Shown here piece after piece: positions 9,804 to 62,569 of a stretch of 64,000 bases of DNA. Every line of letters starts with the position of its first letter. Within the stretch, counting starts at the first letter, position 1. The stretch lies in assembly GCA_003152105.1 (NCBI GenBank), contig PLZJ01000002.1, positions 311,761-375,760 on the forward strand. The letters run 5' to 3'. The notes beneath the pieces are model-generated. The model saw nothing but the letters and a program-made list of their open reading frames with translations, was not told the origin of the DNA and did no database searches. The position numbers were made by a program, and so were the translations under genes. The DNA comes from Candidatus Levyibacteriota bacterium. GTDB taxonomy: Bacteria; Patescibacteriota; Microgenomatia; Levybacterales; UBA12049.

Positions 9804-10874
9804 ATTTTTCTTATCATTGTCATTTACAATATCCAAAGAATATTCGAGAAGTATTCTGATAGTTGCAGCAATTGGAACTGCAAGAATTAATCCTACAACA
9901 CCAAACATGTGTCCTCCGGCAAGAACTGAAAAAAGTATTATTATAGATGGAAGTTTTGTTATTTTGCCCATTATTATTGGGGTAATAAAATAATCTTGTA
10001 ATTGTCTAACTAAAAAGTAAATTAATCCAACAACTATCACTCCTTGAATAGGAGCTAGTCCAAAATTATTATTTCCTGTAATAAGAATTACTAAAGCAGC
10101 AACTACACCAGCTGTAATTGGTCCAATAATAGGAACTATTTCTGCAAACCCTGAAAAAATTGAAAGAATAAGTGAAAATCTTTCTCCTAAAATCGAAAGA
10201 CATATAAACAATAAGCAAGATACAATAATAATTAATAATAGCTGACCTCTCAAGTATCCACCCATTACTGCATTTATTCTACGTATTAATATTTCTACAT
10301 CTACCTTATATTTATTAGGGATTTGATGAATAAATCTATCTGTAATTGCTCTTCCTTCTTTTAAGAAATAGAAGCCTGAAAATAGGAAAATAATGAAGCT
10401 TAATATATGTGTAAATATTTGTGGAAATAAGCTAAAAAGAGATGTCGAAGTAAGCAGTTTTGATTTTTGTATTGAATTCAATGCATCAAAAATAAATCCT
10501 TGCGCAAAGTCAGGGAGCGAATGTATTTGTATTTTCGTATGAATTACTAGATGTGTTATATAACCTCTAAGCTCCGAGGATTCTTCAATAGTGCGTTTTG
10601 TCAATATATAACTGGCAATAACTATTATTGCCATTATAATGATATATATTAACGCAACAGAAAGCGTACGTGGCATCCTAAGTTTATTTGATAGAAAGTT
10701 TACTAAGGGGTTAAATATATATGCAAATACCGCAGCTAGAACAAATGGAGTTAATATACCGCGAACTGAATAGAGGAATAAGAAAAGTATACATACTAGA
10801 ATAAAGAAGAATATAAACTTATAACGAATTGACATTGTTAAATTTATTATATCAGAGGCATGATATGCTTGCAC
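9792..10874 (-). CDS. AI-2E family (UPF0118 / PF01594-like) multi-pass membrane transporter
   Basis: Eight or more hydrophobic helices with ...LTPFVLAAVFAYIFNPLVNFL... The track start is a GTG (cac at 10872-10874). An internal ATG (MSIRYKF) is an alternative start. The 3' end abuts or overlaps the RNase P RNA 3' end. Confidence 0.7.
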   Translation of the reverse strand: MQAYHASDIINLTMSIRYKFIFFFILVCILFLFLYSVRGILTPFVLAAVFAYIFNPLVNFLSNKLRMPRTLSVALIYIIIMAIIVIASYILTKRTIEESSELRGYITHLVIHTKIQIHSLPDFAQGFIFDALNSIQKSKLLTSTSLFSLFPQIFTHILSFIIFLFSGFYFLKEGRAITDRFIHQIPNKYKVDVEILIRRINAVMGGYLRGQLLLIIIVSCLLFICLSILGERFSLILSIFSGFAEIVPIIGPITAGVVAALVILITGNNNFGLAPIQGVIVVGLIYFLVRQLQDYFITPIIMGKITKLPSIIILFSVLAGGHMFGVVGLILAVPIAATIRILLEYSLDIVNDNDKKNPRK

Positions 10875-10952
10875 TCGAGCTATTTTGTGTCATTTTATAA
10901 TCACACTATGCTTTTCTGAATTATCAGGTTAAAGTAAAAATAAATATCAATC

Positions 10953-11234
10953 TTAACGAACAGCTTTTTTAAGTGTTTTTCCGGGAGTAAAACCTGGTGC
11001 TTTTCTTGCTGCTATGTTCATTTTTTCTCCAGTTTTCGGATTTCTACCAACTCGTGATTGCCTTTTTCTAATACTAAATGTTCCAAATCCGGTAATAACA
11101 ACTTTTTCACCTCTTTTTAGTGAATCTCTTATCGTATTTAGCATAACTTGCATTGCATCTCTAGATGCCTTGTTGGTAAGATTGGCTTTTTTTGAAATTA
11201 CTTCTATTAAATCTTTTTTAGTCACACAATTCAC
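10953..11234 (-). CDS. hup: DNA-binding protein HU
   Basis: 93 aa. ...GEKVVITGFGTFSIRKRQSRVGRNPKTGEKMNIAARKAPGFTPGKTLK is the HU/IHF arm motif. Confidence 0.85.
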   Translation of the reverse strand: MNCVTKKDLIEVISKKANLTNKASRDAMQVMLNTIRDSLKRGEKVVITGFGTFSIRKRQSRVGRNPKTGEKMNIAARKAPGFTPGKTLKKAVR

Positions 11235-11320
11235 CTCCTTCCATAATGTAAGTTGAAATCGCCGTTTAGACTAACAATATAGGAAAAACGTATTATTGTC
11301 AATATGATCAACTATATCAG

Positions 11321-12580
11321 TTAAGAGGCGATAGAGCGGAATTCTCTTATTGCGGTAACTTTAACTTCACCAGGTACAATCAATGATTTATCGATTTCTT
11401 CTTTTATTTTTTGTGCAGTTATAACGGTTTGAGCATCGTCCAGTTTTCCAGCATTTATTATTACTCGAAGTTCTCGACCTGCCTCAAATGCATATGCGTC
11501 TTCAATTCCTTCATGTCTTTTCGCAATATCTTCCATTTGAGTAAGTCTTTTTGCATAATCTTCATAATCTTCATAGCGAGCCCCAGGTCTAGAACCGGAA
11601 ATAGCATCTCCGATATGTACGATTACGGATTCTATTGATGAAAATGGCTTATCTTCATGATGTTCTGCAACACAATTAATAATAGGTTCTGGTAGATTAT
11701 ATCTTTTAAGAAGCTCAACGCCAAGTTTAACATGAGAGCCTTCTCCTTCTACTACTTTTCCAATGTCATGTAGCATAGCGCCAAGTTTAACTACGTTTAC
11801 ATCAGCTCCTATTTCTTCTGCAATGTGTGCTGCTATTTTAGTAGCTTCTAGAGTATGTACGATTAAGTTTTGTCCATATGATGTTCTGAATTTAAATCTA
11901 CCGAGGACAGACATTAATTCGACAGGCAAATTATATACCCCAACTTCATGAGTTAATTTTTGGCCTTCTTCTATTAAAATTTTATCTACCTCTTCTTGTG
12001 TTTGCTTTACAATTTCTTCTATTCGAAATGGTTGAATACGGGTATCTTTCAATAATTTTTCTAAAGCACGTCTTGCAATTTCTCTTCTTACCTGGTCAAA
12101 GCTTGAGAGTCTAATTATTCCTTCTTCATCCAGGTCAACATCAACTCCAGTAGCCTGTTCAAAGGCACGAATATTTCTGCCTTCTTTCCCAATAATTCTG
12201 CCTTTCATTTCTTCGTCTGGAACTTTTACTACAGAAACAGTATATTCTGGGACATAACTTATTGCTCCGTGTCTCATGCTTTCAACTAAAATTTCCCTAG
12301 CCTTTTTTTCTGACGTTTGCTTTGCCTCTTCTTCAGATTCTTTAATTAATTTAGCTACAGCATGTCTTTGTTGATTTTCTACTTCTGTTAGGAGTTCTTG
12401 CTTTGCCTCTTCTTCAGTAAGACTCGTAATATTTTGTAGTTTTTTACGATATTCGTCTCGCTTTTTTTCGATTTCTAATTTTTCTTTTTCTAATCGATCT
12501 CGATCTATTTCTACTTTTTCTTGTTTTTCAAGTAGTCGTTTTTCGAGTGCAATTAGATCTGATTGTGTAGTATCTGCCAT
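11321..12580 (-). CDS. rny: ribonuclease Y (KH plus HD domains), short form that appears to lack the usual N-terminal membrane anchor
   Basis: GRIIGKEGRNIRAFEQATGVDV (KH), then HTLEATKIAAHIAEEIGADVNVVKLGAMLHDIGK...HHE (HD). The coiled-coil N-terminus begins at MADTTQ with no hydrophobic segment. Confidence 0.85.
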   Translation of the reverse strand: MADTTQSDLIALEKRLLEKQEKVEIDRDRLEKEKLEIEKKRDEYRKKLQNITSLTEEEAKQELLTEVENQQRHAVAKLIKESEEEAKQTSEKKAREILVESMRHGAISYVPEYTVSVVKVPDEEMKGRIIGKEGRNIRAFEQATGVDVDLDEEGIIRLSSFDQVRREIARRALEKLLKDTRIQPFRIEEIVKQTQEEVDKILIEEGQKLTHEVGVYNLPVELMSVLGRFKFRTSYGQNLIVHTLEATKIAAHIAEEIGADVNVVKLGAMLHDIGKVVEGEGSHVKLGVELLKRYNLPEPIINCVAEHHEDKPFSSIESVIVHIGDAISGSRPGARYEDYEDYAKRLTQMEDIAKRHEGIEDAYAFEAGRELRVIINAGKLDDAQTVITAQKIKEEIDKSLIVPGEVKVTAIREFRSIAS

Positions 12581-12719
12581 AAATTGCAGACAATAGCATG
12601 AAGTTGCTTAATAATTTATTTCACTGTGGTTTTAGTTGCAATATGTATCATAATTCACTAAAACGAACAACTACTATTGTCCTTGGACGTATTATACTAC
12701 ACATTCTGTTTTCTGGTCA

Positions 12720-13103
12720 ATGTTCCTAAAATTTTGTATACTAATAAAGATGTTTATTATTTTTATTAATTGGTTGATATCAGCTCTTGTTATTATTGCT
12801 GCATCATATTTATTACCAGGGGTACATGTTCAGTCATTTTTAACTGCGCTGGTAGTTGCAATAGTGCTTGGCATATTGAATGCAGTTATAAAACCAATAT
12901 TATTTTTACTCACGTTGCCTCTTACTATAATAACTCTTGGATTATTCACTTTTATTTTAAACGCATTTATGATTCTTCTAGCAAGTAAAATAGTGCCTGG
13001 ATTTCATGTTGATAATTTTTGGTGGGCATTGTTATTCGGTATAATCTTGTCTATTTTTAACTCTTTTCTTCAGAACTCCAAAAAAGAGCAAAAGCTTAAG
13101 TAA
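12720..13103 (+). CDS. DUF360 / phage-holin-4-like small membrane protein (4 TM)
   Basis: Entirely hydrophobic 127-aa ORF with WLISALVIIAASYLLPGVHV and ...KIVPGFHVDNFWWALLFGIIL, typical of the YvlD/DUF360 family. Confidence 0.5.
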   Translation: MFLKFCILIKMFIIFINWLISALVIIAASYLLPGVHVQSFLTALVVAIVLGILNAVIKPILFLLTLPLTIITLGLFTFILNAFMILLASKIVPGFHVDNFWWALLFGIILSIFNSFLQNSKKEQKLK

Positions 13104-13120
13104 TATTTATTTTTAATGAT

Positions 13121-13588
13121 TTATGTATAATGCGCCAACACTTTTTTAATCGTTTCCCAATTGAAGCCTCTTCTTCCGAGTTGTCCAACAAGTTTTTCAT
13201 ACAATTGATCTCTCGATAAGTTTTTATAACTTGTAATTTTTTTCTCTACAATTTTTTTAGCTAAATCCTCGTCTGAAATATATGTTTCTTGATCACCAAG
13301 AACATCTTCTATAATTTCCTTTGAGATACCTTTTTTGGAAAGCTCAATGCTAATGAGTCTTTTACTTTTTGGTTTGCTATAAACTCTACTTGAAAACCAA
13401 GCCTTTGCAAACATTTTATCATCAATTAGACGTTCATTTTTTAAAAGTTCTATAACCAAAGCTATATCAGTATCATTTGCTTTTTTTCTTACTAAGTAAT
13501 CTTTTATTTCTTTTTCTGATCGCTGTCTGTATGAAAGAAATTTTATGGTTTTCGCATGTAGAGAAGCAACAGATATCGAATGAGTCAT
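13121..13588 (-). CDS. recX: recombination regulator RecX
   Basis: Immediately downstream of recA on the same strand. Three-repeat pattern: LSYRQRSEKEIKDYL / IDDKMFAKAWFSSR / ISIELSKKGIS / LVGQLGRRGF, paralleling E. coli RecX. Confidence 0.8.
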   Translation of the reverse strand: MTHSISVASLHAKTIKFLSYRQRSEKEIKDYLVRKKANDTDIALVIELLKNERLIDDKMFAKAWFSSRVYSKPKSKRLISIELSKKGISKEIIEDVLGDQETYISDEDLAKKIVEKKITSYKNLSRDQLYEKLVGQLGRRGFNWETIKKVLAHYT

Positions 13589-13600
13589 TTAGGAGTATTA

Positions 13601-14701
13601 TTACACATTTACTTCATCAATGGTATCTTTGGTATCTTCAATACCAACAGTTACTGAAGTTGGACGTGATTGAGTAAGTTCTTTAATTTTATCTACTATT
13701 TCTTTTGTTTGAGTAGGATTATTTTTAAGCCATTCCTTGGTATTTTCTTTTCCTTGCCCGATGACTTCATCGTTATATCTAAAGAATGCTCCGGCTTTTT
13801 TAATAACATTCATTTCTACTCCAACATCTAAAACTCCACCTTCTCGTGAAATACCATCTGTAGTCATAACATCAAATTCTGCAATTCTAAACGGCACTGC
13901 TACTTTATTTTTTACAATTTTGGCTCTGTGTCTTGATCCAATTGGTTTATCGCCATCTTTGAGAGATTCAATTTTTCTTACATCAATACGTACAGATGCA
14001 TAAAACTTAAGAGCAAGTCCTCCAGGAGTAGTTTCGGGATTGCCAAACATTATCCCTATTTTTTGTCGTAATTGATTGGTAAAGATAACTACTGTTTTTG
14101 ATTTAGAAATAACACCTGTTAACTTTCTTAGAGCTTGAGACATTAATCTGGCTTGTAATCCAATCATAGCATCTCCCATCTCTCCTTCTATTTCTGCTCT
14201 TGGAACAAGCGCGGCAACTGAATCAATAACAAGAACATCAATTCCTCCAGAACGAATTAATGATTCTGCGATTTCTAATGCTTGTTCACCTGTATCGGGT
14301 TGTGAGATTAGCAATTCTTCAAGTTTTATTCCAATTTTTTCCGCCCATAATGGATCAAGTGCGTGTTCTGCGTCTATAAAAGCTGCAACTCCTCCATGTT
14401 TCTGTGCTTGTGCTATTACAGATAATGAAAGTGTAGTTTTTCCTGATGCTTCGGGTCCATAAATTTCAATGATTCTTCCTCTTGGCAATCCTCCTACTCC
14501 TAATGCTAAATCAACAGGGAGAGAGCCTGTTGAAATAGTTGAAATATCTAACTTATTGCCAATTTCACCAAAACGCATTATGGCACCACGACCATACTGC
14601 TTTTCGATTTGTTCCATAGCCAGTCGAACTGCTTCTAGTTTTGGGGATAAGTGTCCATTTGTTGGTGGAGTTGCTTTTGTAGATCCTGCCTGTTTAGCCA
14701 T
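13601..14701 (-). CDS. recA: recombinase RecA
   Basis: Canonical RecA: [17 protein letters not shown] (Walker A), [23 protein letters not shown]. Confidence 0.95.
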
Positions 14702-14786
14702 CGCAGCACTATTGTAACACGCTTATGTTATAATGCAATAGGCAAAAAACAACAGTTTAACAATCTAATCTCTTTATATAGACTAG

Positions 14787-53220: not shown

Positions 53221-53273
53221 ATTGCCCAGTCTTTTGGTAAAGAGTATAATCACAAATAGGATTATTTACTAAC

Positions 53274-54530
53274 ATGCTAGATATCTCATACATAAAAGAT
53301 AATACAGAAAAAGTAATAAAAGGCATTGAAAGCAAAAATGCCTCTGTTGACGTACATAAGATAATAGAACTCGATAATGCATTTCGAGAACTTTCAGTTG
53401 ATTTGCAAAGACTCAGAGAAAAAAGAAATACGAACACATCTGCAATTTCTGGTAAGCCTACCCAAGAACAGATTGATCAAGGCAAAAGCATAAAAGAGGC
53501 AATTGAAAAGATAGAATCTGCTCTCGAGAAAATAAAAAACGATCGAGATACGTTGCTTTTACAAGTTCCGAATATTCCAAAAGCGGATGTAAAAATTGGG
53601 AAAAATGAAGACGAAAACGAAATTGTTAAAACAGTAGGTAAGCCTACTATTTTTTCTTTTACGCCAAAAGACCATGTTGAGATCGGAAAATCGCTTGATA
53701 TTATAGATATTGAACGAGCCGCCAAAGTTTCAGGACCTCGATTCGGTTATTTAAAAAATGAAGGAGTGCTTTTAGAGTTTGCATTGAAAAGATTAGCTTT
53801 CGACACGCTGTTAAAAGAAGGATTTACTCCATTATTGCCACCAGTTCTAATTAAAGAAGAAATAATGAAAGGGCTTGGATACATGGAAAATGGTGAAGAT
53901 GAAAATATGTATATTTTAGACAAAGATAACATTGTTTTAGTTGGAACTGCTGAGCAGTCAATGGTGCCTTTTCATATGAACGAGGTGCTAAAAGAGTCAG
54001 ATTTACCCAAGCGATATGTGGGATTTTCAACTTCATTTAGAAGAGAAGCTGGTAGTTATGGCAAAGATACAAAAGGAATATTTAGAGTACATCAATTTGA
54101 TAAAGTAGAAATGGTATCTTTTGTAAAAGAAGGAGAAGATGACAAAGAACAAGAATATCTTCTTTCTCTTGAAGAGCAGTTTTTCAATTTACTAGAAATT
54201 CCTTATCAAGTGGTAAAAATGTGCACTGGCGACTTAGGATTCCCTGCAGCTAGGAAATATGACTTAGAAGCATGGATGCCCTCCCAAAATAAATACAGAG
54301 AAGTAACATCAGTTTCTACTGTTACAGATTTTCAATCTCGAAGGCTCAATATTAAATACCAAGTTGGTAACGAAAAGAAGTTTGTTAGCATATTAAATGG
54401 TACTGCATATTCAATGAACAGGCCAATCATTGCTATTTTAGAAAACAATCAACAGGCAGATGGCTCTGTTCATATTCCTAAAATTTTACAGCCTTATATA
54501 GGCAAAGAAAAAATTTCTATTAAACAATAA
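53274..54530 (+). CDS. serS: serine--tRNA ligase
   Basis: N-terminal coiled coil, then ...FRREAGSYGKDTKGIFRVHQFDKVE... (class II motifs 2 and 3). Confidence 0.9.
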   Translation: MLDISYIKDNTEKVIKGIESKNASVDVHKIIELDNAFRELSVDLQRLREKRNTNTSAISGKPTQEQIDQGKSIKEAIEKIESALEKIKNDRDTLLLQVPNIPKADVKIGKNEDENEIVKTVGKPTIFSFTPKDHVEIGKSLDIIDIERAAKVSGPRFGYLKNEGVLLEFALKRLAFDTLLKEGFTPLLPPVLIKEEIMKGLGYMENGEDENMYILDKDNIVLVGTAEQSMVPFHMNEVLKESDLPKRYVGFSTSFRREAGSYGKDTKGIFRVHQFDKVEMVSFVKEGEDDKEQEYLLSLEEQFFNLLEIPYQVVKMCTGDLGFPAARKYDLEAWMPSQNKYREVTSVSTVTDFQSRRLNIKYQVGNEKKFVSILNGTAYSMNRPIIAILENNQQADGSVHIPKILQPYIGKEKISIKQ

Positions 54531-54591
54531 ACTCCCTAAAATTATTAGCAAGACTATATTTCGAGGCTATTTTGTGATAAAATAAAGCAAC

Positions 54592-57306
54592 ATGATTCCA
54601 ATAATTTCTAAATTTTTTGATTCTAACGACAAAGAAGTGACCAAGCTTTTTCCTCTTATTGAAGAAATTAATTTACTTGAAGAAAAAACTAAAAAACTAA
54701 AAGACACAGATTTTCCAAAAAAGACAAATGAATTTAAAAAAAGAATTCAAGATGGAGAATCATTGGATGCAATACTTCCTGAAGCATTTGCACTCGTTAG
54801 AGAAGCAGCAAGAAGAACTACTGGTTTGCGTCATTTTGATGTGCAACTAATGGCAGCAGTGGCTTTATCAAGAGGTAAGATTGCAGAACAAAAAACTGGT
54901 GAAGGAAAAACATTATCAGCTGTGCCTGCATTATATCTCAATGCACTAAGTGGAAATTCTGTGCATTTGGTTACTGTTAACGATTATCTTGCTCGTCGAG
55001 ATGCGGGTTGGATGGGGCCAATTTTCAGTCTTTTGGGTATGAGCGTATCATCAATAATTGCCGAACAATCTTTTGTCTTTGACCCAAATTTTATTGACGA
55101 AAATGCACATGATGTCAGATTAACTCATCTGCGTCCGATAACAAGAAAAGAAGCATACAAGTGTGAGGTTGTATATGGTATAAATTCGGAATTTGGATTT
55201 GATTATCTCAGAGACAATATGGCCCAAGATCAAGAACAAATATCTCAAACAGGACATTTTTTTGCAGTTGTTGATGAAGTAGATTCAGTTCTGATAGATG
55301 AAGCAAGAACACCCCATATTATTTCTGCTCCGGATGCACAACCTACTCAAAAGTATTATGAATACGCCAGTTTAGTTGATAAATTAAGTTCTGAAACTGA
55401 TTATAAGATTGATGAAAAAATGCGTACTGCTCATTTGACCGATCATGGCATAGGCAAAGTTGAAAAGATTTTTGGTATAAAAGATATTTATGAAAAAGAT
55501 TTCGATACAGTTTACCATCTAGAAGCTGCTCTTAAGGCAAGGACGTTGTATCAAAAAGAAAAAGATTACATTGTAAAAGACAATCAAGTTATTTTAGTTG
55601 ATGAATTTACTGGTCGTCTCATGCAAGGGAGAAGGCTTTCTGAGGGACTTCACCAAGCATTAGAAGCAAAAGAAAATGTTCCTATACAGCGAGAGTCAAA
55701 AACACTAGCAACGGTATCGTTACAGAACTACTTTAGAATGTACGAAAAATTAGCTGGTATGACAGGTACTGCAGCAACAGAAGCTGAAGAATTCCATAAA
55801 ATATATGGAATTGACGTAATTACGATTCCAACTAACAACCCGATGAAACGCATTGATCATGCAGATGTGGTATATAAAACTACTCGAGCTAAATACTCGG
55901 CTGTTGCTCAAGACATTGAGGATGCATATAAAAAAGGACAACCAGTACTGGTTGGTACGACCTCAATTGATAAAAACGAGATTATCTCACAGCTCTTAAT
56001 AAGAAAGAAGATTCCTCATGAGGTATTAAATGCAAAAAATCATGAAAGAGAAGCTGAAATAATTTCAAAAGCTGGACAAATTGGAGCAGTTACTGTTGCA
56101 ACAAATATGGCAGGACGTGGAGTAGATATTATTTTGGGTGGAGAGCCGCCTACATCTGACGATGCTCCTGCAATGAAAAAATGGGAAAAAGAGCACGAGA
56201 AGGTTATTGATCTTGGTGGTTTATATGTTATTGGAACTGAACGACATGAGTCAAGAAGAATTGATAATCAGCTACGAGGCCGATCAGGAAGACAAGGAGA
56301 TCCTGGAGCATCAAGATTTTTTGTCGCTTTGGATGATGAGATAATGCGACTTTTTGGAGGAGATAAGATCGCGGGAATAATGAGTAAGTTTAATATGCCA
56401 GAAGATACGCCTCTATCTCATGGATTAGTTTCACGAGCAATAGAGCAAGCGCAAAGTAAGGTTGAGGGATTCTATTTCCAAAATAGAAAAAATACCGTTG
56501 AATACGATGACGTTTTAAATAAGCAAAGGGAAATAATTTATGGCAGACGGAGAGAAATACTAAAAGCTGGTGCAAACACTAAAGATACGATTTTAAAGGA
56601 TCAAATTAAGGAAAAGATTCAATTAAGTATTCGAGATATTGTAACTGCTGAAGCTCAAGCTGAGTTATTGCCAAGCGGAATTGAAAATGAATCTCGGCTT
56701 CTTAATATAAATGAACGTATTGTTGCACAACTTGTAACAATCATTAATTTTGATGAAGCTTCTCAAAAACAAATTTATACACAGTTAGAGCAACTTCATG
56801 GACAAGAAGAAAAAATAGATTTTTTAGTAAAGCTTTCGTCTGATCTATATGATAAACGTGAGGTTGAAGTCGGCTCAGAATTAATGCGATTTGTCGAAAA
56901 AGCAGTAATGTTGGAAGTTAGTGATAGATTATGGATGGATAATTTAGATGCTATGGAACATTTACGACAAGGAATTGGACTTAGGGGTTATGGGCAAAGA
57001 GATCCATTAGTTGAATATAAGAATGAAGGCTTTAGAATGTTTGAAAAACTTATAAGAACAATTGATGATGAATTAGTGCATAGAATATATCGAGTACAAA
57101 TTCAAAATCAGCCACTTGAGCAAAAAAATACTAATCAAAATAACATTGAACTAAATAGGCCTCAAAGCGAGATAAGTCAAAGCGGAAGAATTGCAAAACC
57201 GAAAGTTGCTAAGCCTATAAATGAAAATAAACTAGGTAGAAATGATCTTTGTTGGTGTGGTAGTGGGAAGAAATGGAAAAAATGCCACTGGCCTCAATTA
57301 GCTTGA
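54592..57306 (+). CDS. secA: preprotein translocase ATPase SecA
   Basis: ...LHDVQLMAAVALSRGKIAEQKTGEGKTL..., DEVDS.LIDEARTP.IIS, and the C-terminal zinc finger CWCGSGKKWKKCH. Confidence 0.95.
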   Translation: MIPIISKFFDSNDKEVTKLFPLIEEINLLEEKTKKLKDTDFPKKTNEFKKRIQDGESLDAILPEAFALVREAARRTTGLRHFDVQLMAAVALSRGKIAEQKTGEGKTLSAVPALYLNALSGNSVHLVTVNDYLARRDAGWMGPIFSLLGMSVSSIIAEQSFVFDPNFIDENAHDVRLTHLRPITRKEAYKCEVVYGINSEFGFDYLRDNMAQDQEQISQTGHFFAVVDEVDSVLIDEARTPHIISAPDAQPTQKYYEYASLVDKLSSETDYKIDEKMRTAHLTDHGIGKVEKIFGIKDIYEKDFDTVYHLEAALKARTLYQKEKDYIVKDNQVILVDEFTGRLMQGRRLSEGLHQALEAKENVPIQRESKTLATVSLQNYFRMYEKLAGMTGTAATEAEEFHKIYGIDVITIPTNNPMKRIDHADVVYKTTRAKYSAVAQDIEDAYKKGQPVLVGTTSIDKNEIISQLLIRKKIPHEVLNAKNHEREAEIISKAGQIGAVTVATNMAGRGVDIILGGEPPTSDDAPAMKKWEKEHEKVIDLGGLYVIGTERHESRRIDNQLRGRSGRQGDPGASRFFVALDDEIMRLFGGDKIAGIMSKFNMPEDTPLSHGLVSRAIEQAQSKVEGFYFQNRKNTVEYDDVLNKQREIIYGRRREILKAGANTKDTILKDQIKEKIQLSIRDIVTAEAQAELLPSGIENESRLLNINERIVAQLVTIINFDEASQKQIYTQLEQLHGQEEKIDFLVKLSSDLYDKREVEVGSELMRFVEKAVMLEVSDRLWMDNLDAMEHLRQGIGLRGYGQRDPLVEYKNEGFRMFEKLIRTIDDELVHRIYRVQIQNQPLEQKNTNQNNIELNRPQSEISQSGRIAKPKVAKPINENKLGRNDLCWCGSGKKWKKCHWPQLA
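57277..57302 (+). repeat. copy 1 of a 26-bp imperfect direct repeat (last 26 nt of secA: aaaaaatgccactggcctcaattagc). Copy 2 lies at 59467-59492
   Basis: 24 of 26 nt identical between the copies. They bracket the GC-rich TetR+SDR segment. Confidence 0.7.
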
Positions 57307-57385
57307 TTTAACAGACTAAAATAATATTATTGGAGTAATAAATATCAGTATATTAAATATAGTCAAATTATACCATAATAATGGA

Positions 57386-58069
57386 CTAAATGTGCTTGCC
57401 AAGAATCAGGGGCTCATAGCTTCGAGCGTCTTGTAGCAACTGTTCACGTGCAATACCGGCCTTAGCGCGAATTTTCAAACCCTGCACTAGGTCAACGAGC
57501 GCACGACTTCGCACCTTGGCAGAAGGTGTTCGAGTCAGACGACCTGCCTTTATCTCCTTTTCGAAACGTATCGCGAAAATATCAGCAGATTCATTGAGGG
57601 CTTTTGCGACAAATATACGTATCTCCGTTACACGCTCCGACTGTCCCAGCGTAGCGGAAAGCATCAGGCAACCGGCACGACCCTCACTCGAAGCGGTGTT
57701 GACAGTAGCCTCACAAAGGGCCGCTACAGCCTTATGGATATCCGGCTCCGCTCGAAAATCTGCCAGCATGGCTGCTCCATACGTTATTGCATAGCGCTCA
57801 ACCGCCTTGAGTAGTAGGGTTGACTTGTTTCCGAAGGCTCGGTAAATCGCGGGTTTGGTGACATTCACAGCCCGTGCGATCCGATTTACGTCAACTCCTT
57901 CATACCCATGTTCCCAAAACATCTCAACGGCACGATCGAGGGCTTCGTCAGGGATAAAGCTTTTTGGACGTCCTGGTGTTCGGTTTGTTGTATTAGTTAC
58001 CATAGAGTATGAAATTGGTCCTTGCATTACACTTTTTATTATTATACTCTTGAGTATGTAATACATCAA
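57386..58069 (-). CDS. TetR/AcrR family transcriptional regulator (GC-rich, foreign-looking composition)
   Basis: An N-terminal HTH ...LDRAVEMFWEHGYEGVDVNRIARAVNVTKPAIYRAFGNKSTLL... and an all-alpha C-terminal domain. Codon usage is GC3-rich, unlike the flanking genes. Confidence 0.8.
   Translation of the reverse strand: MMYYILKSIIIKSVMQGPISYSMVTNTTNRTPGRPKSFIPDEALDRAVEMFWEHGYEGVDVNRIARAVNVTKPAIYRAFGNKSTLLLKAVERYAITYGAAMLADFRAEPDIHKAVAALCEATVNTASSEGRAGCLMLSATLGQSERVTEIRIFVAKALNESADIFAIRFEKEIKAGRLTRTPSAKVRSRALVDLVQGLKIRAKAGIAREQLLQDARSYEPLILGKHI
58044..58057. promoter_or_regulatory. palindrome ATACTC-TT-GAGTAT overlapping a TATACT -10-like box in the 23-bp tetR/SDR divergent junction. Candidate TetR operator
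   Basis: A 6-2-6 perfect inverted repeat inside the AT-rich divergent promoter region between the tetR start (58069) and the SDR start (58093). Confidence 0.3.
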
Positions 58070-58092
58070 GTCAGTTAAACAAAGGAGACTAT

Positions 58093-59097
58093 ATGGATAC
58101 GATCAAAGAAAAAACAAGTCGACCCTCACTTTCTACAATGAAGAAATCTATCAAACATTCGATCGCACTCATCACCGGTGCCACCTCAGGGGTCGGTTAT
58201 GCGGCTGGCCGCATGCTCGCCATCGAGGGCTACCGTCAGATCATCGTTACCGGACGCAGTCTGGCCCAGATTCAAGAAACGGCCGCTCAGCTCGCGGCTG
58301 AGACCAAGATACAGGTCTTCACGCCGCTGGAACTGGAGCTGGATAGTGTATCCAGCGTTCAGTCCTTCCTCGCCGAGCACGTCAAGCGAGGTCAGCCGGT
58401 CGACTTCCTACTGCTCAATGCAGGAATCATGGGACGTAAGGAACTCAAGCTCACTGCGGCAGGAATAGAGATGTCTTCGGCTCCGCTCATCGGCCATCAT
58501 CAACTGACTGTCGGGTTGCTCCGCGCCAAGCTGTTGAGCCCGAATGCTCGAATTGTTATTGCCAGCTCGGAAGCTGCCCGAGGTGATGTACCCCTGTTCA
58601 GCTACACCGATGTAGCGGCCTTCGCGGCCAAATACTTCCAGGGTGACCGAACCGCTGCTGTGGAAGCCTTGTTGCATAGCGGACCGAATGTAAAATATCA
58701 GCCCAACCGGGCGTTCGCAGATGCGAAACTAATCGGTACTTTGTGGGTAGCTGCACTGGCTCGCCGGCTGCCCTCCGGCATGGCGATATATGCCGTTTCG
58801 CCTGGTGCCGCGCCTGCCACCAATGCGGTGCGAAACGCAGGTCTCCTTACGAGATTGGTGCTGATTCCACTGACGAAGCTTATCCCCGGCATGTCTCATA
58901 CTCCTGAGACCGCGGCCCGTCGGTATCTCAATGCATCGGAATTCGGAACCGACGTTTCGGGTCAATTCTTCGCATCGCCGCCCAAGAAGTTAACCGGCCC
59001 AATCGAGGCAATGCGCCAACCACACTTTCACGATCGAGCCAACCAGGAAGCCGCGTGGCAGGCCGTCGTCAAGGTTACGGGCGTCGATTTGTCTTAA
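58093..59097 (+). CDS. short-chain dehydrogenase/reductase (SDR) family oxidoreductase (GC-rich)
   Basis: ...IALITGATSGVGYAAGRML... (TGxxxGxG), ...LLLNAGIM... (NAG), and AAGGAG Shine-Dalgarno before ATG 58093. Divergent from the TetR gene. Confidence 0.8.
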   Translation: MDTIKEKTSRPSLSTMKKSIKHSIALITGATSGVGYAAGRMLAIEGYRQIIVTGRSLAQIQETAAQLAAETKIQVFTPLELELDSVSSVQSFLAEHVKRGQPVDFLLLNAGIMGRKELKLTAAGIEMSSAPLIGHHQLTVGLLRAKLLSPNARIVIASSEAARGDVPLFSYTDVAAFAAKYFQGDRTAAVEALLHSGPNVKYQPNRAFADAKLIGTLWVAALARRLPSGMAIYAVSPGAAPATNAVRNAGLLTRLVLIPLTKLIPGMSHTPETAARRYLNASEFGTDVSGQFFASPPKKLTGPIEAMRQPHFHDRANQEAAWQAVVKVTGVDLS

Positions 59098-59466
59098 CCA
59101 GCATCCTTGAGAGCGGTGTTCTGAAATTCTGAAATTAAATCACTGGTTTCTTTACGTATCCCAGCTTGTTGCTGTCTATTTTGCTCTATAGTTTACCCAA
59201 GTGGGCTTAATTAGTTGTGTTGAAACTAATGATCCAATTGGCGGCAAATTTTTGACGAGCTTTTCAATTAGCTAGGACACTCAAGTTCAGTATTATATAC
59301 TATAAGACTGTTAATGAGCCTGTAAGTCATGACTTATCAGTGTCTCATTTGTCTCACTAAGCCTGTATAAGAGACATCGCTATAATGATAATATGGGTTT
59401 AGACCGCTATACTCAGGGATTGCGGATTCGGCCGAAGCTATTTGGTACCTATTTAAATGACAGTTC

Positions 59467-59492
59467 AAAAAATGTCATTGGCCTCAATTAGC
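59467..59492 (+). repeat. copy 2 of the secA-terminus direct repeat (aaaaaatgtcattggcctcaattagc)
   Basis: See copy 1. It lies about 370 bp after the SDR stop and just before an AT-rich spacer. Confidence 0.7.
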
Positions 59493-59724
59493 CTAACTTT
59501 ACTTTTATACAATTATTGCCTTAATTACTATTTATGATTTTTTCCAAAAGAAAAAACCACCCTTTATTATTATCCGCTTACGCGGTCCCAAGAAGGGAAG
59601 GATGGTTTAGATATTCAATTGTAGATTTGTGCAGCCGAAGCTGGATTGATAACGGGATCATCCGTCTTGGTCGTCGAATTGACGCTCAAGCCCCATGGAG
59701 ACCATGAGTTTATGTGATATTCAG

Positions 59725-60645
59725 TTATTTGGTTGGCGTCGACGATCCGTTCCCGAGACTCCCCAAGTTGAAGAGATTGCCCGAGTTGTTCGGAAGGACG
59801 TAGACCTTCGCTTGTCCGTAGAGGCTCTGTACCGCCTGGATCGAGAGATATCTCAGCACCTGCGGTGAAAGCGACTTGGTCAAGAGGGAGTTAGCCTTTG
59901 ATTGGCCTTCTGCCTTGGCGATGGTAGCCCTACGAGCTCCTTCAGCTTGTGCAACGACTTGTTGCGCTTGAAGTTGAGCTGTTTGAACCTGCTGGGCCGC
60001 GATCTGTTTTGCCTCGATGCTCTGCTCGAACTGCTTGCTGTAGTTGAAGTTTGAGATAAGTAGATTGTCTACTATAATCCCATTCTTCCCAAGATCAGTC
60101 GTGAGAGCATTCTGGATTTTGACAGAAAGCTGAGCTCGATTCGGAGCGATCTCCACCGTGTGGTAGTGAGATACTTGCTCCTTCACGTCTTGCTGGACTT
60201 GGTTTGGTACCAAGACATCGAACCAGTCAACTCCAAAATCTCGGTAGAGATGTTGAAGTTTGGTCGGATCGAGATGGTAGTTCAGCTGGACATCAAACGT
60301 TAGAGTCTGAGACTCCTTCGAGAACGCGTTGATGTTGTTTTCCGTGAACTTCTGCGTCTTGACGTTGGCGGTGTGGACCGAATTCCAAGGTGCGACAAAG
60401 TGCGTTCCCGATTGAAGGGGAGACCCGCTAAGTACACCGGAATAGTTGTAGACCATACCGACTTGCCCGGTTCCGATGTTTTGGATCGATGCTATGAAGA
60501 AGATCACAAAATACAGAACCACTGTAGCTCCGGCGGCCGCCCATCCTGCACCTTTTTCGCCTGTTGTTTCACCGAAGAGACCGAATGCCAGTCCGAGAAA
60601 GATGATGATGAGTCCGACGACAGTTAAACCGATCCATAGTGCCAT
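59725..60645 (-). CDS. SPFH / band-7 (stomatin-prohibitin-HflK/C-like) membrane protein (GC-rich)
   Basis: N-terminal TM helices, then ...GQVGMVYNYSGVLSGSPLQSGTHFVAPW... and a long Ala/Gln coiled-coil tail (...AQQVQTAQLQAQQVVAQAEGARRATIAKAEG...), typical of SPFH domains. Confidence 0.8.
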   Translation of the reverse strand: MALWIGLTVVGLIIIFLGLAFGLFGETTGEKGAGWAAAGATVVLYFVIFFIASIQNIGTGQVGMVYNYSGVLSGSPLQSGTHFVAPWNSVHTANVKTQKFTENNINAFSKESQTLTFDVQLNYHLDPTKLQHLYRDFGVDWFDVLVPNQVQQDVKEQVSHYHTVEIAPNRAQLSVKIQNALTTDLGKNGIIVDNLLISNFNYSKQFEQSIEAKQIAAQQVQTAQLQAQQVVAQAEGARRATIAKAEGQSKANSLLTKSLSPQVLRYLSIQAVQSLYGQAKVYVLPNNSGNLFNLGSLGNGSSTPTK

Positions 60646-60887
60646 GTGCGTTCAACTCCTTGTTGTTATTTCGGCATTGATCGAACTACTTTTAGTGCTA
60701 CACGTTTCACCCTCCATTTTGTTATTTGTTGTCTTCTCATTTATGCCCATGATAGATTATGGATTAGTACAAATATTTATACTTTTGCATAAAAAAGAAG
60801 ACAACTTTTCTCAGCAATTGAGAGTTAATAAAGGATGTCCTACAATTAAATGTAAATGTGCTACTAAATTCCCTATAGGGTATTTAG

Positions 60888-60944
60888 TAATACAGGATTA
60901 TATACTGAAAACATGAAATTGTCAATATTATAGGATTAAAATTA
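60888..60944. repeat. AT-rich repeated motif, copy A: ..TACAGGATTATATACT.. AAATTGTCAATATTATAGGATTAAAATT. Copy B is at 61899-61927, and a third TACAGGATTAAT is at 63899-63912
   Basis: The shared core is AAATTGTCAA-N5-7-TA(c/t)AGGATTA(t/a)AT. The copies lie in the spacers that flank the GC-rich SHOCT gene patch. Confidence 0.5.
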
Positions 60945-61068
60945 TTGAAGCTAAAGGGAGTGCGCGGGGGTTGTTGTAGCTAGAGTAGCTAAGATCTGTA
61001 GCTTGAATCACAGATTGTCCAGATGGACCAACACCCCACACGCGGCGCACATCTTTGTTGCGGGTTAC

Positions 61069-61329
61069 TTACGCGCTTGAACTTGGTCGATGAACGACAT
61101 CTTTAACCTTTTGTTCATAGGTTGGGAAGTCCATCTCGCCTGCAACGTATTTGTCTTGAAGAGACTTGATCGTATCTTCTTCGGATCCGAGTTCCTGCTC
61201 CTTCGCTTGGAGAGTTTTCTCCTTAGCTTTCACCTTGGAACGTTGTTTCCTCAAGTACCCGATGAAGAAGATTCCTCCACTACCGAGTAAGAGCATGCCT
61301 ACCACGACATCAAGTAGATCTCTTAGCAT
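61069..61329 (-). CDS. SHOCT-domain small membrane protein (GC-rich)
   Basis: N-terminal TM (LLLGSGGIFFIGYL), then ...LQDKYVAGEMDFPTYEQKVKDV..., resembling the short C-terminal SHOCT domain. Confidence 0.5.
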   Translation of the reverse strand: MLRDLLDVVVGMLLLGSGGIFFIGYLRKQRSKVKAKEKTLQAKEQELGSEEDTIKSLQDKYVAGEMDFPTYEQKVKDVVHRPSSSA

Positions 61330-61898
61330 TGCGAATTCCTTTCAGTGTTTTGTTGAGTTTGAATATGTCTATTCGACGTTTTTGTCGCGTTTTGCCTCCT
61401 TCTTGTATGAAAGTATTGTTAAACGAAAATGACCGCGATTACCTTGACTACATCAAATACTCCTTCAAAGTTCACTTCTGTCCCTTCGTTGATTATGAGT
61501 CTACCGGAATATTCTAATCTCCATTTCAGAAGCAGCTTCGAAGAATAGAATCAGAGTAAAAGCTCCAAATAGAACAAAAAAGACTGTGTTAGAAACATCG
61601 TACTTATGATGTGATAAGTTAATGAGAGCTAATGAATATCCTGCTGTACTCAAATTAGCTATCATAGCTAGAACAAGTAGCAATGCTCTTATCAAGTAAC
61701 TCTATATTTTTCCTTAATGTTATTTCTATATACCTGGGAAAGAGAAAAGGTTATTACCATCTCTCTTCCCAAGGCAAAAGAATATAAGGAATGTTCCGCA
61801 ACTTGTGAATGTGCAATAAGTTAAAAAAGGCTTTAATTTAGACAGCTATAGTCTAATTTAGCTCTTTTTTAGCCATGGGAGTATAGCAATAAATAGTC

Positions 61899-61927
61899 AA
61901 ATTGTCAAATACTACAGGATTATATTT
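61899..61927. repeat. AT-rich repeated motif, copy B (CAAATTGTCAAATACTACAGGATTATATTTT)
   Basis: See copy A. Confidence 0.5.
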
Positions 61928-62146
61928 TCGGCTTGCTTAAGTACATAACTTCTATAGTTTCACAGGTATTTGAGGTTTAAACCAATTTATTTCAAAAAAA
62001 GGTCCACAAAATAATAATTAGATTGTATTTATTGGCCAGGTCAATTAATATTCATGGACTTTATTGGTGGTTAACTATTCTGTAAGCGTAACTATTTTAT
62101 TCCCGATCTTGGCCAAAATTTAAAAAAGAAGTGGTATAATTTAGGA

Positions 62147-62569
62147 GTGATCACGCTTCGTCCCTATAGCCCAAATGACCACAGACAAATACTGGCTATT
62201 TTAAAAGAGTCTGGAATGGGTCCTTATGAAAATTGGGATGACTTGGATAATTACGCATCTATAGTTAAACTAGATAATGAAAATATCCTAGTAGCTCAAG
62301 ATGATGCAGAAATTATAGGCGTAGTCTTACTTACTTTTTTTGGTAGTAAAGTAGCATGGATTTTTAGACTTGCGGTTAAGGAAGCGTATAGGGAAAAAGG
62401 CATTGGTTCAAAATTAATTGAAGAAGCAGAAAAGATTGTTAGGAAAAAAGGAGTTAAAGAATTAGGTTTATATGCAAATGCTTCAAATATGAAGCTCCAA
62501 AGTTTCTACAAAAAGAGAAAATACAAAACGTTTGGAAAAGAGTATATTTACATGTGGAAGCTTATGTAA
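62147..62569 (+). CDS. GNAT family N-acetyltransferase (GTG start in the track; TGGTATAAT extended -10 at 62130-62138)
   Basis: ...IIGVVLLTFFGSKVAWIFRLAVKEAYREKGIGSKLIEEAEKI... (acetyl-CoA-binding motif A: R/Q-x-x-G-x-G/A). Confidence 0.7.
   Translation: MITLRPYSPNDHRQILAILKESGMGPYENWDDLDNYASIVKLDNENILVAQDDAEIIGVVLLTFFGSKVAWIFRLAVKEAYREKGIGSKLIEEAEKIVRKKGVKELGLYANASNMKLQSFYKKRKYKTFGKEYIYMWKLM

Follow-up and report, generated by a model that had tools for sequence, protein, structure and literature searches.

We analysed a 64-kb window of DNA (64,000 nucleotides, the whole stretch considered here) from a Candidatus Levyibacteriota bacterium, in which the 3′ end of secA is followed downstream by a second copy of itself and the interval between the two copies holds a small cassette with two genes, a TetR-family regulator and a short-chain dehydrogenase/reductase (SDR). 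The secA gene (54592-57306, + strand) is intact and encodes 904 amino acids with the Pfam domains SecA_DEAD, PP_bind, P-loop_SecA, SecA_SW and SEC-C; its GC content at third codon positions (GC3) is 0.21, and that of host genes lies between 0.21 and 0.28. A 26-mer at its end (57277-57302, AAAAAATGCCACTGGCCTCAATTAGC), which stops one base short of completing the Ala codon, is repeated at 59467-59492 with 24/26 identity, as the original prediction had it, and this repetition is not due to chance: no other match with three or fewer mismatches occurs in the 64-kb window, and none arose in 100 dinucleotide-preserving shuffles. A search reaching 10 kb past the window end brought no third such copy to light. 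The similarity of the two copies extends to 36 nt at 83% (57277-57312 and 59467-59502).

Both copies read as gene ends. The first, attL-like copy (57277-57312, + strand) consists of the last nine codons and stop of the live gene (KKCHWPQLA-stop, 57277-57306) plus 6 nt, and the second, attR-like copy (59467-59502, + strand) is a truncated secA end with the same ten codons in the secA register (59467-59496), preceded by an in-frame stop at 59458 and unrelated sequence. Within these codons the copies differ at TGC/TGT, CAC/CAT, GCT/GCC and TGA/TAA, all four silent transitions, an outcome with a chance probability of about 0.012-0.018 for four random transitions and about 0.0006-0.0008 for four random substitutions. 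Because frame and stop are kept and the differences are silent, we regard both copies as bona fide, working-type secA ends and not as the product of a random duplication in decay. The signature of a left and a right attachment site with a functional replacement end, which had been read from the repeat, therefore holds: as in integrative elements generally, direct repeats bracket the element and one of them overlaps the intact 3′ end of the target gene.

The cassette is 2.19 kb long, and the only genes between the repeats are those for the regulator and the SDR. From left to right it comprises an AT-rich left arm (57313-57385), the TetR-family gene (57386-58027, − strand; 213 amino acids as called, with an alternative ATG at 58003; PF00440, E 2.5e-14), a predicted divergent promoter/operator region (58028-58092), the SDR gene (58093-59097, + strand; 334 amino acids; PF00106, adh_short, E 6e-15; PRK06197/LPOR-like subgroup by NCBIfam) and an AT-rich, non-coding right arm of 341 nt (59126-59466). 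The predicted pairing of a TetR regulator with a divergent SDR is thus upheld by the TetR_N and adh_short matches. The two arms (73-84 nt on the left, 341 nt on the right) have no homologue in donor contigs or elsewhere, with no nucleotide or translated match to the fetched loci or to the rest of the window, and Rfam returned for the non-coding parts only one sub-threshold match (E 0.17). The right arm includes a 13-nt run at 59364-59376 (TGTATAAGAGACA) identical to part of the Tn5 mosaic end/Nextera adapter; we do not take it for an adapter scar, as the overall match covers just 14 of 19 positions, adapter sequence is missing on either side and a match of this quality should turn up roughly once by chance in this window.

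The region between the two genes is longer than the 23 bp first proposed, measuring 65-89 bp (from 58004 or 58028 to 58092). A perfect 6+6 palindrome (ATACTC-TT-GAGTAT, 58044-58057) lies within it, a promoter scan places a promoter-like tetR site at 58069-58041, and an AGGAG ribosome-binding site precedes the SDR start codon. A helix-turn-helix domain, a divergent neighbour that is kept in three other contigs (L019, L020 and L021) and a palindrome between the genes are the marks of a TetR repressor with a divergent target, and by analogy with such pairs ligand binding probably relieves a repression of the SDR that the regulator exerts at the 58044-58057 palindrome. The SDR itself carries the cofactor motif TGATSGVG, and PF00106 covers only residues 24-169; at about residues 214-220, a position placed by eye, it reads AFADAK where the catalytic YxxxK of a classical SDR is expected (Phe for Tyr), as do all three donor-type homologues.

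The base composition of the interval departs sharply from that of its surroundings. In 1-kb windows the bulk of the stretch averages 34.1% GC (sd 2.2, maximum 38.7), and the windows at 57.5-59.5 kb reach 50-54% GC (z +7 to +9); over the same positions the correlation of tetranucleotide frequencies with the bulk falls from 0.89 to between −0.18 and 0.14. The TetR/SDR pair itself has 53-59% GC in a 34% GC genome. Both profiles bear out the GC-rich block of the original prediction, but the anomaly does not end at the second repeat and runs on to about 61.4 kb.

Foreign origin and residence of the cassette

The organism that carries this cassette is a Microgenomates-type member of the Candidate Phyla Radiation (CPR) without a close sequenced relative, since the nearest named SecA proteins all belong to Levybacteria, Microgenomates or Patescibacteria and none exceeds 72% identity; the earlier suggestion of a CPR-like host is in keeping with this. 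The cassette is resident in this genome and is not a chimera of assembly. The window lies inside a 1.14-Mb scaffold (WOOD18-1_SAMN07125042, ENA ERZ28653421), and a 1.15-Mb NCBI contig encodes identical proteins. We judged the junctions from assembled sequence, namely contigs produced by another assembler (Logan), and contigs from two runs cross them, an outcome in favour of the original prediction. The left junction is crossed by SRR7151530_628035, which corresponds to window positions 53237-57705 and passes from serS through secA into 320 nt of tetR, and the right junction by SRR7151531_1091834 (L025), from the other run, which is identical to 59043-61050 and leads from the 3′ end of the SDR gene across the AT-rich spacer and past the second repeat into a gene for an SPFH protein. 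The first 77 nt of the latter contig are about 23% divergent from window positions 58966-59042 and represent a different SDR variant, so that related SDRs co-occur and the assembly graph branched there; this variant is present in the same community, possibly in a donor-like organism.

The TetR/SDR pair is foreign to this genome, as had been predicted, and was almost certainly acquired horizontally. SDR homologues at 85-87% identity occur in many soil-type metagenomes, one of them annotated as Ktedonobacterales, and the family is found at 66-69% identity on megaplasmids of Paraburkholderia, Ralstonia and Methylovirgula. The divergent TetR-SDR arrangement recurs in three contigs of 55-62% GC (L019, L020 and L021), where it sits among integrases, transposases and a resolvase; in a Ktedonobacterales contig (L022, 59% GC) the TetR gene lies about 400 nt downstream of the SDR gene on the same strand, with a transposase just upstream of the SDR gene. 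At the DNA level, the alignment to L019 (62% GC) runs at 81% identity over 1740 nt (blastn), from the tetR stop to 28 nt beyond the SDR stop (window 57387-59125), with the TetR proteins co-linear and the intergenic regions also homologous; the SDR part aligns at 84% with L020, L021 and L022. Because homology to L019 is confined to 57387-59125, the transferred high-GC block is sharply bounded. These similarities point to a GC-rich soil or wood bacterium as the source of the cargo, and hence to the transfer of what appears to be a complete regulated enzyme unit from one phylum to another. None of the relatives carries TetR and SDR at this place, a finding that would have spoken against acquisition had it been otherwise.

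The cassette is not a fresh arrival, as it has accumulated about 7% private, AT-biased substitutions. Counting changes in the SDR gene at sites where the donor-type copies agree, we found 53 private changes from GC to AT in the window copy and seven from AT to GC; the corresponding counts in donor-type copies are 16-18 and 6-8 (L019, L020/L021) and seven and ten (L022). The gene is under purifying selection (dN/dS 0.18-0.23) and sits on a longer synonymous branch, with dS to the donor-type copies of 0.45-0.49 as against 0.23-0.32 among those copies.

Recurrence at the secA end in other Microgenomates

We screened the secA loci fetched from relatives, each for a repeat of its own secA terminus, and two of about nine other usable genomes contain one; no such repeat is expected by chance in either. 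The first is a Levybacteria metagenome-assembled genome (L004, MFOT01000005), whose structure is identical in an independent JGI contig of the same organism (L027). Here secA ends in KKCHWPN-stop, and a 24/25 copy with one silent difference, also reading KKCHWPN-stop, follows at 743 nt start to start, or 714 nt from the secA stop. The two copies enclose a toxin-antitoxin pair, hicB-like/hicA (HicA, E 5e-18), as cargo. Directly after the cassette, on the opposite strand, comes a second such pair (PIN/RHH), the whole forming a small toxin-antitoxin islet (9252-10666 of L004). The second genome (L006, an 835-kb contig) has a secA gene ending in KKCHWPNTA-stop and, 1097 nt downstream, a 20/21 copy that reads KKCHWPNLS-stop; five of the next six bases differ, with the stop in the same register, and the cargo is a single gene for a 317-aa secreted beta-helix-like protein on the opposite strand.

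The three duplications have a common starting point. The remnant starts at one and the same codon in each genome, the first Lys of KKCH, and in all three the two Lys codons are AAA AAA; among the nine relatives that lack a duplication, eight use AAG for one or both of these residues, the exception (L038) lying on a 2-kb contig. Across 120 related SecA proteins (P0121-P0240) the C-terminus is invariant as far as KKCH[WY]P and hypervariable beyond it, in sequence as in length, with tails such as N, D, QLG, NLP and DIPSNVV. This variability begins just past the 17-nt core common to the three duplications, and the repeats reach into the tail. In a set of contigs from Parachlamydiales and others (L014, L016, L018 and L031-L037), a protein N-terminus of the form M..RND.CWCGSGKKWKKCHWP is 82-95% identical to the SEC-C motif of CPR SecA; in these proteins the motif stands at the start and not at the end.

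The gene order around secA fits the prediction that an integration model makes. In the closest relative with flanks (L069, 72% SecA identity), serS and secA are followed directly by genes for proteins of 298 and 111 amino acids. In L006 the order is secA, cassette, remnant and then genes for 281 and 115 amino acids that are 46-49% identical to those neighbours, with UDG slightly further on; the remnant lies exactly between the inserted gene and the ancestral neighbours, where integration would have left it. The window has lost both ancestral neighbours, and UDG is not reached until 13.9 kb downstream of secA. The interval between secA and UDG is clearly a plasticity zone in this lineage. Another relative (L068) has a 4-kb insert at 10670-14750, encoding proteins of 323, 372 (FecR-domain), 245 and 353 (PGA_cap) amino acids, ahead of the conserved genes for 293 and 111 amino acids and UDG.

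Within the window, a second module (59725-61329), overlooked by the original prediction, adjoins the second repeat. It consists of the SPFH/Band-7 gene (59725-60645, − strand; 306 amino acids; PF01145, E 1.9e-31; GC3 0.59), whose best homologue is 45% identical and lies on a 65% GC contig, and its partner, a gene for an 86-aa membrane protein (61069-61329, − strand; GC3 0.48) upstream of it. That contig (L070, 1.39 Mb) carries a pair of the same kind, with an 80-aa gene directly ahead of the SPFH gene, the 80-aa protein being weakly similar at its N-terminus (E 0.008). Composition and homology suggest that this is a second foreign two-gene unit, either older or from an unsampled donor. No copy of the secA end marks the far end of the module, and we can only speculate that it was an earlier arrival at the secA site whose scar has decayed. 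The 86-aa gene is flanked by non-coding stretches of 423 nt (60646-61068) and 817 nt (61330-62146), unusually long for a streamlined genome; six-frame Pfam and Rfam searches of both returned nothing, and they could be decayed genes. A PADLOC search linked neither TetR, SDR, SPFH and the 86-aa protein nor the L006 cargo to defence. Further on, at about 63.9-70.9 kb in window-equivalent positions of contig L065, a resistance-nodulation-division (RND) efflux pair (a membrane-fusion protein of 479 amino acids and an ACR_tran protein of 1112) and a 721-aa DUF87/TrwB-type coupling-protein-like gene are placed between the island and the conserved UDG; composition, checked as far as 64.0 kb, where the window ends, is host-like at that point. 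An RND pump seems unusual cargo for a CPR genome.

Proposed site-specific recombination and competing explanations

We favour, with moderate confidence, the interpretation that a small cassette without a recombinase of its own was placed at the secA 3′ end by site-specific recombination. On this account, the TetR-SDR unit would have come from a GC-rich soil or wood bacterium complete with its intergenic control region and been set between AT-rich arms, and the whole would have entered as a circle bearing a mimic of the secA end (KKCHWPQLA-stop). A crossover within the SEC-C zinc-finger codons, at the core AAAAAATGYCAYTGGCC, would then have left secA ending on the element-derived copy and stranded the displaced end 2.19 kb downstream; the empty attB site would have been ...AAAAAATGCCACTGGCCTCAATTAGC joined straight to CTAACTTTAC. 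As none of the three cassettes (window, L004, L006) encodes a recombinase, the enzyme would have acted in trans. Once installed, the regulator would keep the SDR gene silent in the absence of a small-molecule ligand, as in other TetR-controlled units. The same anatomy in two other genomes makes site-specific recombination at a conserved site much likelier than a one-off event, and the different small cargoes found there suggest that the secA end behaves as an attachment site for small cassettes. More tentatively, and with rather less confidence than doubt, we propose that the SEC-C codons (KKCHWP) are the attachment site of a cassette-capture system of Microgenomates or of CPR bacteria more widely, so far undescribed, in which a recombinase supplied in trans would install and exchange cassettes of one or two genes. 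If this is the case, the closing codons of secA change with every insertion, which would account for the hypervariability of SecA tails directly after KKCH[WY]P, and streamlined CPR genomes have a route by which to sample genes, including those of distant GC-rich phyla.

Several observations weigh against this account. The duplications occur in only three of about ten usable genomes, no arm motif conserved across the three cassettes was found, and the 4-kb insertion after secA in L068 lacks a secA-end remnant, so that it is another insertion at the same junction, possibly by a different route. The two copies in the window diverge at 2 of 26 positions, about as much as the private divergence of the cassette (~7%), and they may derive from a once-perfect duplication by decay if every change hit the live copy. 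No recombinase was detected: gene tables running from window position 44.6 kb to about 73.7 kb (9.7 kb past the window end, on L065), and so taking in 13 kb ahead of the cassette and 16 kb behind it, contain no Phage_integrase, Resolvase, rve or transposase domain; six-frame Pfam searches of 59098-59730 (four of six frames) and 60640-62150 show no recombinase pseudogene; and a low-sensitivity phmmer screen with two tyrosine integrases and a resolvase from L020 against the open reading frames (ORFs) of the window and ten relatives found nothing. In this respect the original prediction, which had reported no integrase, transposase or relaxase, agrees with every screen. Neither an excised circle nor a strain with an empty site was found: scans of genome and metagenome contigs with the SecA C-terminus yielded only relatives at 59% identity or less over that query, and a protein search gave 72% as the best SecA, with exact protein matches confined to contigs of the genome itself. 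Nor was an autonomous element at the secA-end site found in IMG/VR, phages or plasmids, sets in which CPR elements are poorly represented: IMG/VR has 26 matches to the att pattern, of which the pair closest to an att site (L044 and L048) falls within unrelated ORFs in a different frame and the others do not read as a secA end, a search of IMG/VR with the SecA C-terminus gave none, and the inferred attP junction had no match among phages and plasmids. The literature searched does not name the secA 3′ end as an att site, and a search on CPR and integrases gave nothing specific.

The competitor that survives best, though we think it unlikely, is that an autonomous island with an integrase of its own entered the secA 3′ end and was then reduced by deletion of the integrase and of most other genes, an option that the original prediction named first. 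The att-like repeats fit such a history, the arms (57313-57385 and 59126-59466) could be remnants of its backbone, the cassette has been resident for long, and CPR genomes are deletion-prone. A classical island carries its integrase inside the element, however, and only TetR and SDR lie between the repeats; the six-frame Pfam search detected no integrase pseudogene. Three independent cassettes in divergent genomes all lack a recombinase and measure only 0.7-2.2 kb, so that three separate reductions to one or two genes would be needed, and in L004 and L006 coding sequence reaches the repeats and leaves no space for a decayed backbone.

That coding sequence abuts the repeats, making arm sites unnecessary, is by the same token a point in favour of a different and improbable explanation, in which a host Xer-type or other housekeeping recombinase acts on a simple site in the manner of integrative mobile elements exploiting Xer (IMEX) or of dif modules; the secA end would then be, or look like, a chromosomal recombination site, and the elements need no integrase. 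Elements without a recombinase and with direct repeats of about 26 nt suit this explanation, and toxin-antitoxin modules such as that of L004 are typical cargo of dif modules. By inspection, however, the core AAAAAATGYCAYTGGCC has neither a dif-like dyad symmetry nor a TTATG-type arm, and the position of secA appears wrong. The gene lies about 10 kb from a strand switch at about 46 kb that looks origin-like and not terminus-like: between about 32 and 48 kb GC skew changes sign, from negative to positive, and genes pass from the − strand (an operon of ribosomal-protein, EF-G and EF-Tu genes) to the + strand at about 46.2 kb. No dnaA is found among the ten annotated ORFs of at least 180 amino acids at 31.9-43.7 kb.

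Slightly more doubtful still is a non-specific origin of the repeats, either as a long target-site duplication of a transposon or through illegitimate or short-homology recombination during DNA uptake. The failure to find a recombinase and the equal divergence of copies and cassette would be expected from such an event. The cassette lacks the marks of a DDE transposon, however, with no transposase domain and no terminal inverted repeats (the end alignment score of 11 was reached by 46 of 500 shuffles), and we know of no transposon family that makes target duplications of 26-36 nt. The left boundary, moreover, is identical in three genomes, and the copies in L006 differ in a block (five of six nucleotides) with the stop in register, which suggests two different secA ends and not decay. 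Finally, the idea that GC-rich DNA of a co-occurring organism was misjoined into the CPR scaffold is barely tenable: although related SDR variants share the samples and the graph branched at the start of L025, the block is internal to both the 1.14-Mb scaffold and the 1.15-Mb NCBI contig, independent contigs span both junctions, the closest database sequence is only 87% identical, and the strong AT bias of the private SDR substitutions, as expected from residence in a 34% GC genome, makes a chimera unlikely.

Comparison with known integrative elements

CPR bacteria, or Patescibacteria, have tiny, streamlined genomes, and how they acquire genes is little understood. The locus described here documents the entry of an entire regulated enzyme unit from another phylum into a genome of this kind, together with the physical signature of its insertion, and the presence of the same signature at the same secA codon in two deeply diverged Microgenomates turns a single oddity into a testable hypothesis of a docking site. 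If that hypothesis is true, the secA end is a new attachment site and possibly belongs to a new kind of non-autonomous cassette system, and the truncated KKCHWP-stop remnant downstream of secA offers a sequence handle for recently acquired CPR genes.

Elements of similar build are known from other bacteria. In Streptococcus thermophilus, the 3′ end of fda harbours cis-mobilizable elements (CIMEs) of the ICESt1/ICESt3 family, which are short and att-flanked and carry cargo. Like the secA cassette, they lie within att repeats at the 3′ end of a housekeeping gene, have no recombination or transfer genes and presumably depend on a recombinase acting in trans, and att sites without such genes are what we find in the window, in L004 and in L006. 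Modules accrete in tandem at one CIME site, as they may do at the secA end. CIMEs have, however, a cognate integrative and conjugative element with a tyrosine integrase at the same att site, of which none was found for the secA cassette, and the secA cassettes differ from them in target (SEC-C codons), in host phylum (CPR) and in their much smaller size (0.7-2.2 kb). The staphylococcal cassette chromosome (SCC) and pseudo-SCC elements at the 3′ end of rlmH (orfX), typically 20-60 kb long, share with the secA cassette the insertion in the last codons of a gene and the direct repeats that hold the gene end, and composite or tandem arrays and recombinase-less pseudo-elements also occur among them; Ccr serine recombinases carried by related elements move SCC, whereas no such recombinase is seen at the secA end.

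A looser likeness is that to the islands and prophages whose tyrosine integrases use the 3′ ends of tRNA, tmRNA or protein genes such as guaA, with attP restoring the end. There, as in the secA cassette, the element gives a replacement end, the displaced end remains at the far junction and the composition is foreign, but these islands carry an integrase beside att and none of the three secA cassettes does. Integron cassettes and the pdif modules of Acinetobacter are units of one or two genes without a recombinase of their own, often toxin-antitoxin systems or small regulated enzymes, and resemble the secA cassettes as promoter-proximal, recombinase-less units caught at a fixed site. The secA cassette is unlike them in its ends, which are direct copies of a gene end and neither attC nor inverted XerC/D sites: there is no IntI nearby and no attC palindrome, neither repeat forms an attC-like hairpin (fold z −1.07 and −0.3), and no inverted repeat is found there. 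The secA cassettes also bring their own regulator and promoter, which integron and pdif cassettes do not.

By this comparison the nearest analogues would be the CIMEs at fda and the pseudo-SCC elements at rlmH, with the tyrosine-integrase islands standing further off. Cassettes that lack a recombinase and sit between att sites at a gene 3′ end are thus a kind of element already known, and what is new is the site, secA, and the phylum. Should the site prove to be widely used and to have a recombinase dedicated to it, the secA cassettes would be more than a variant of these known elements.

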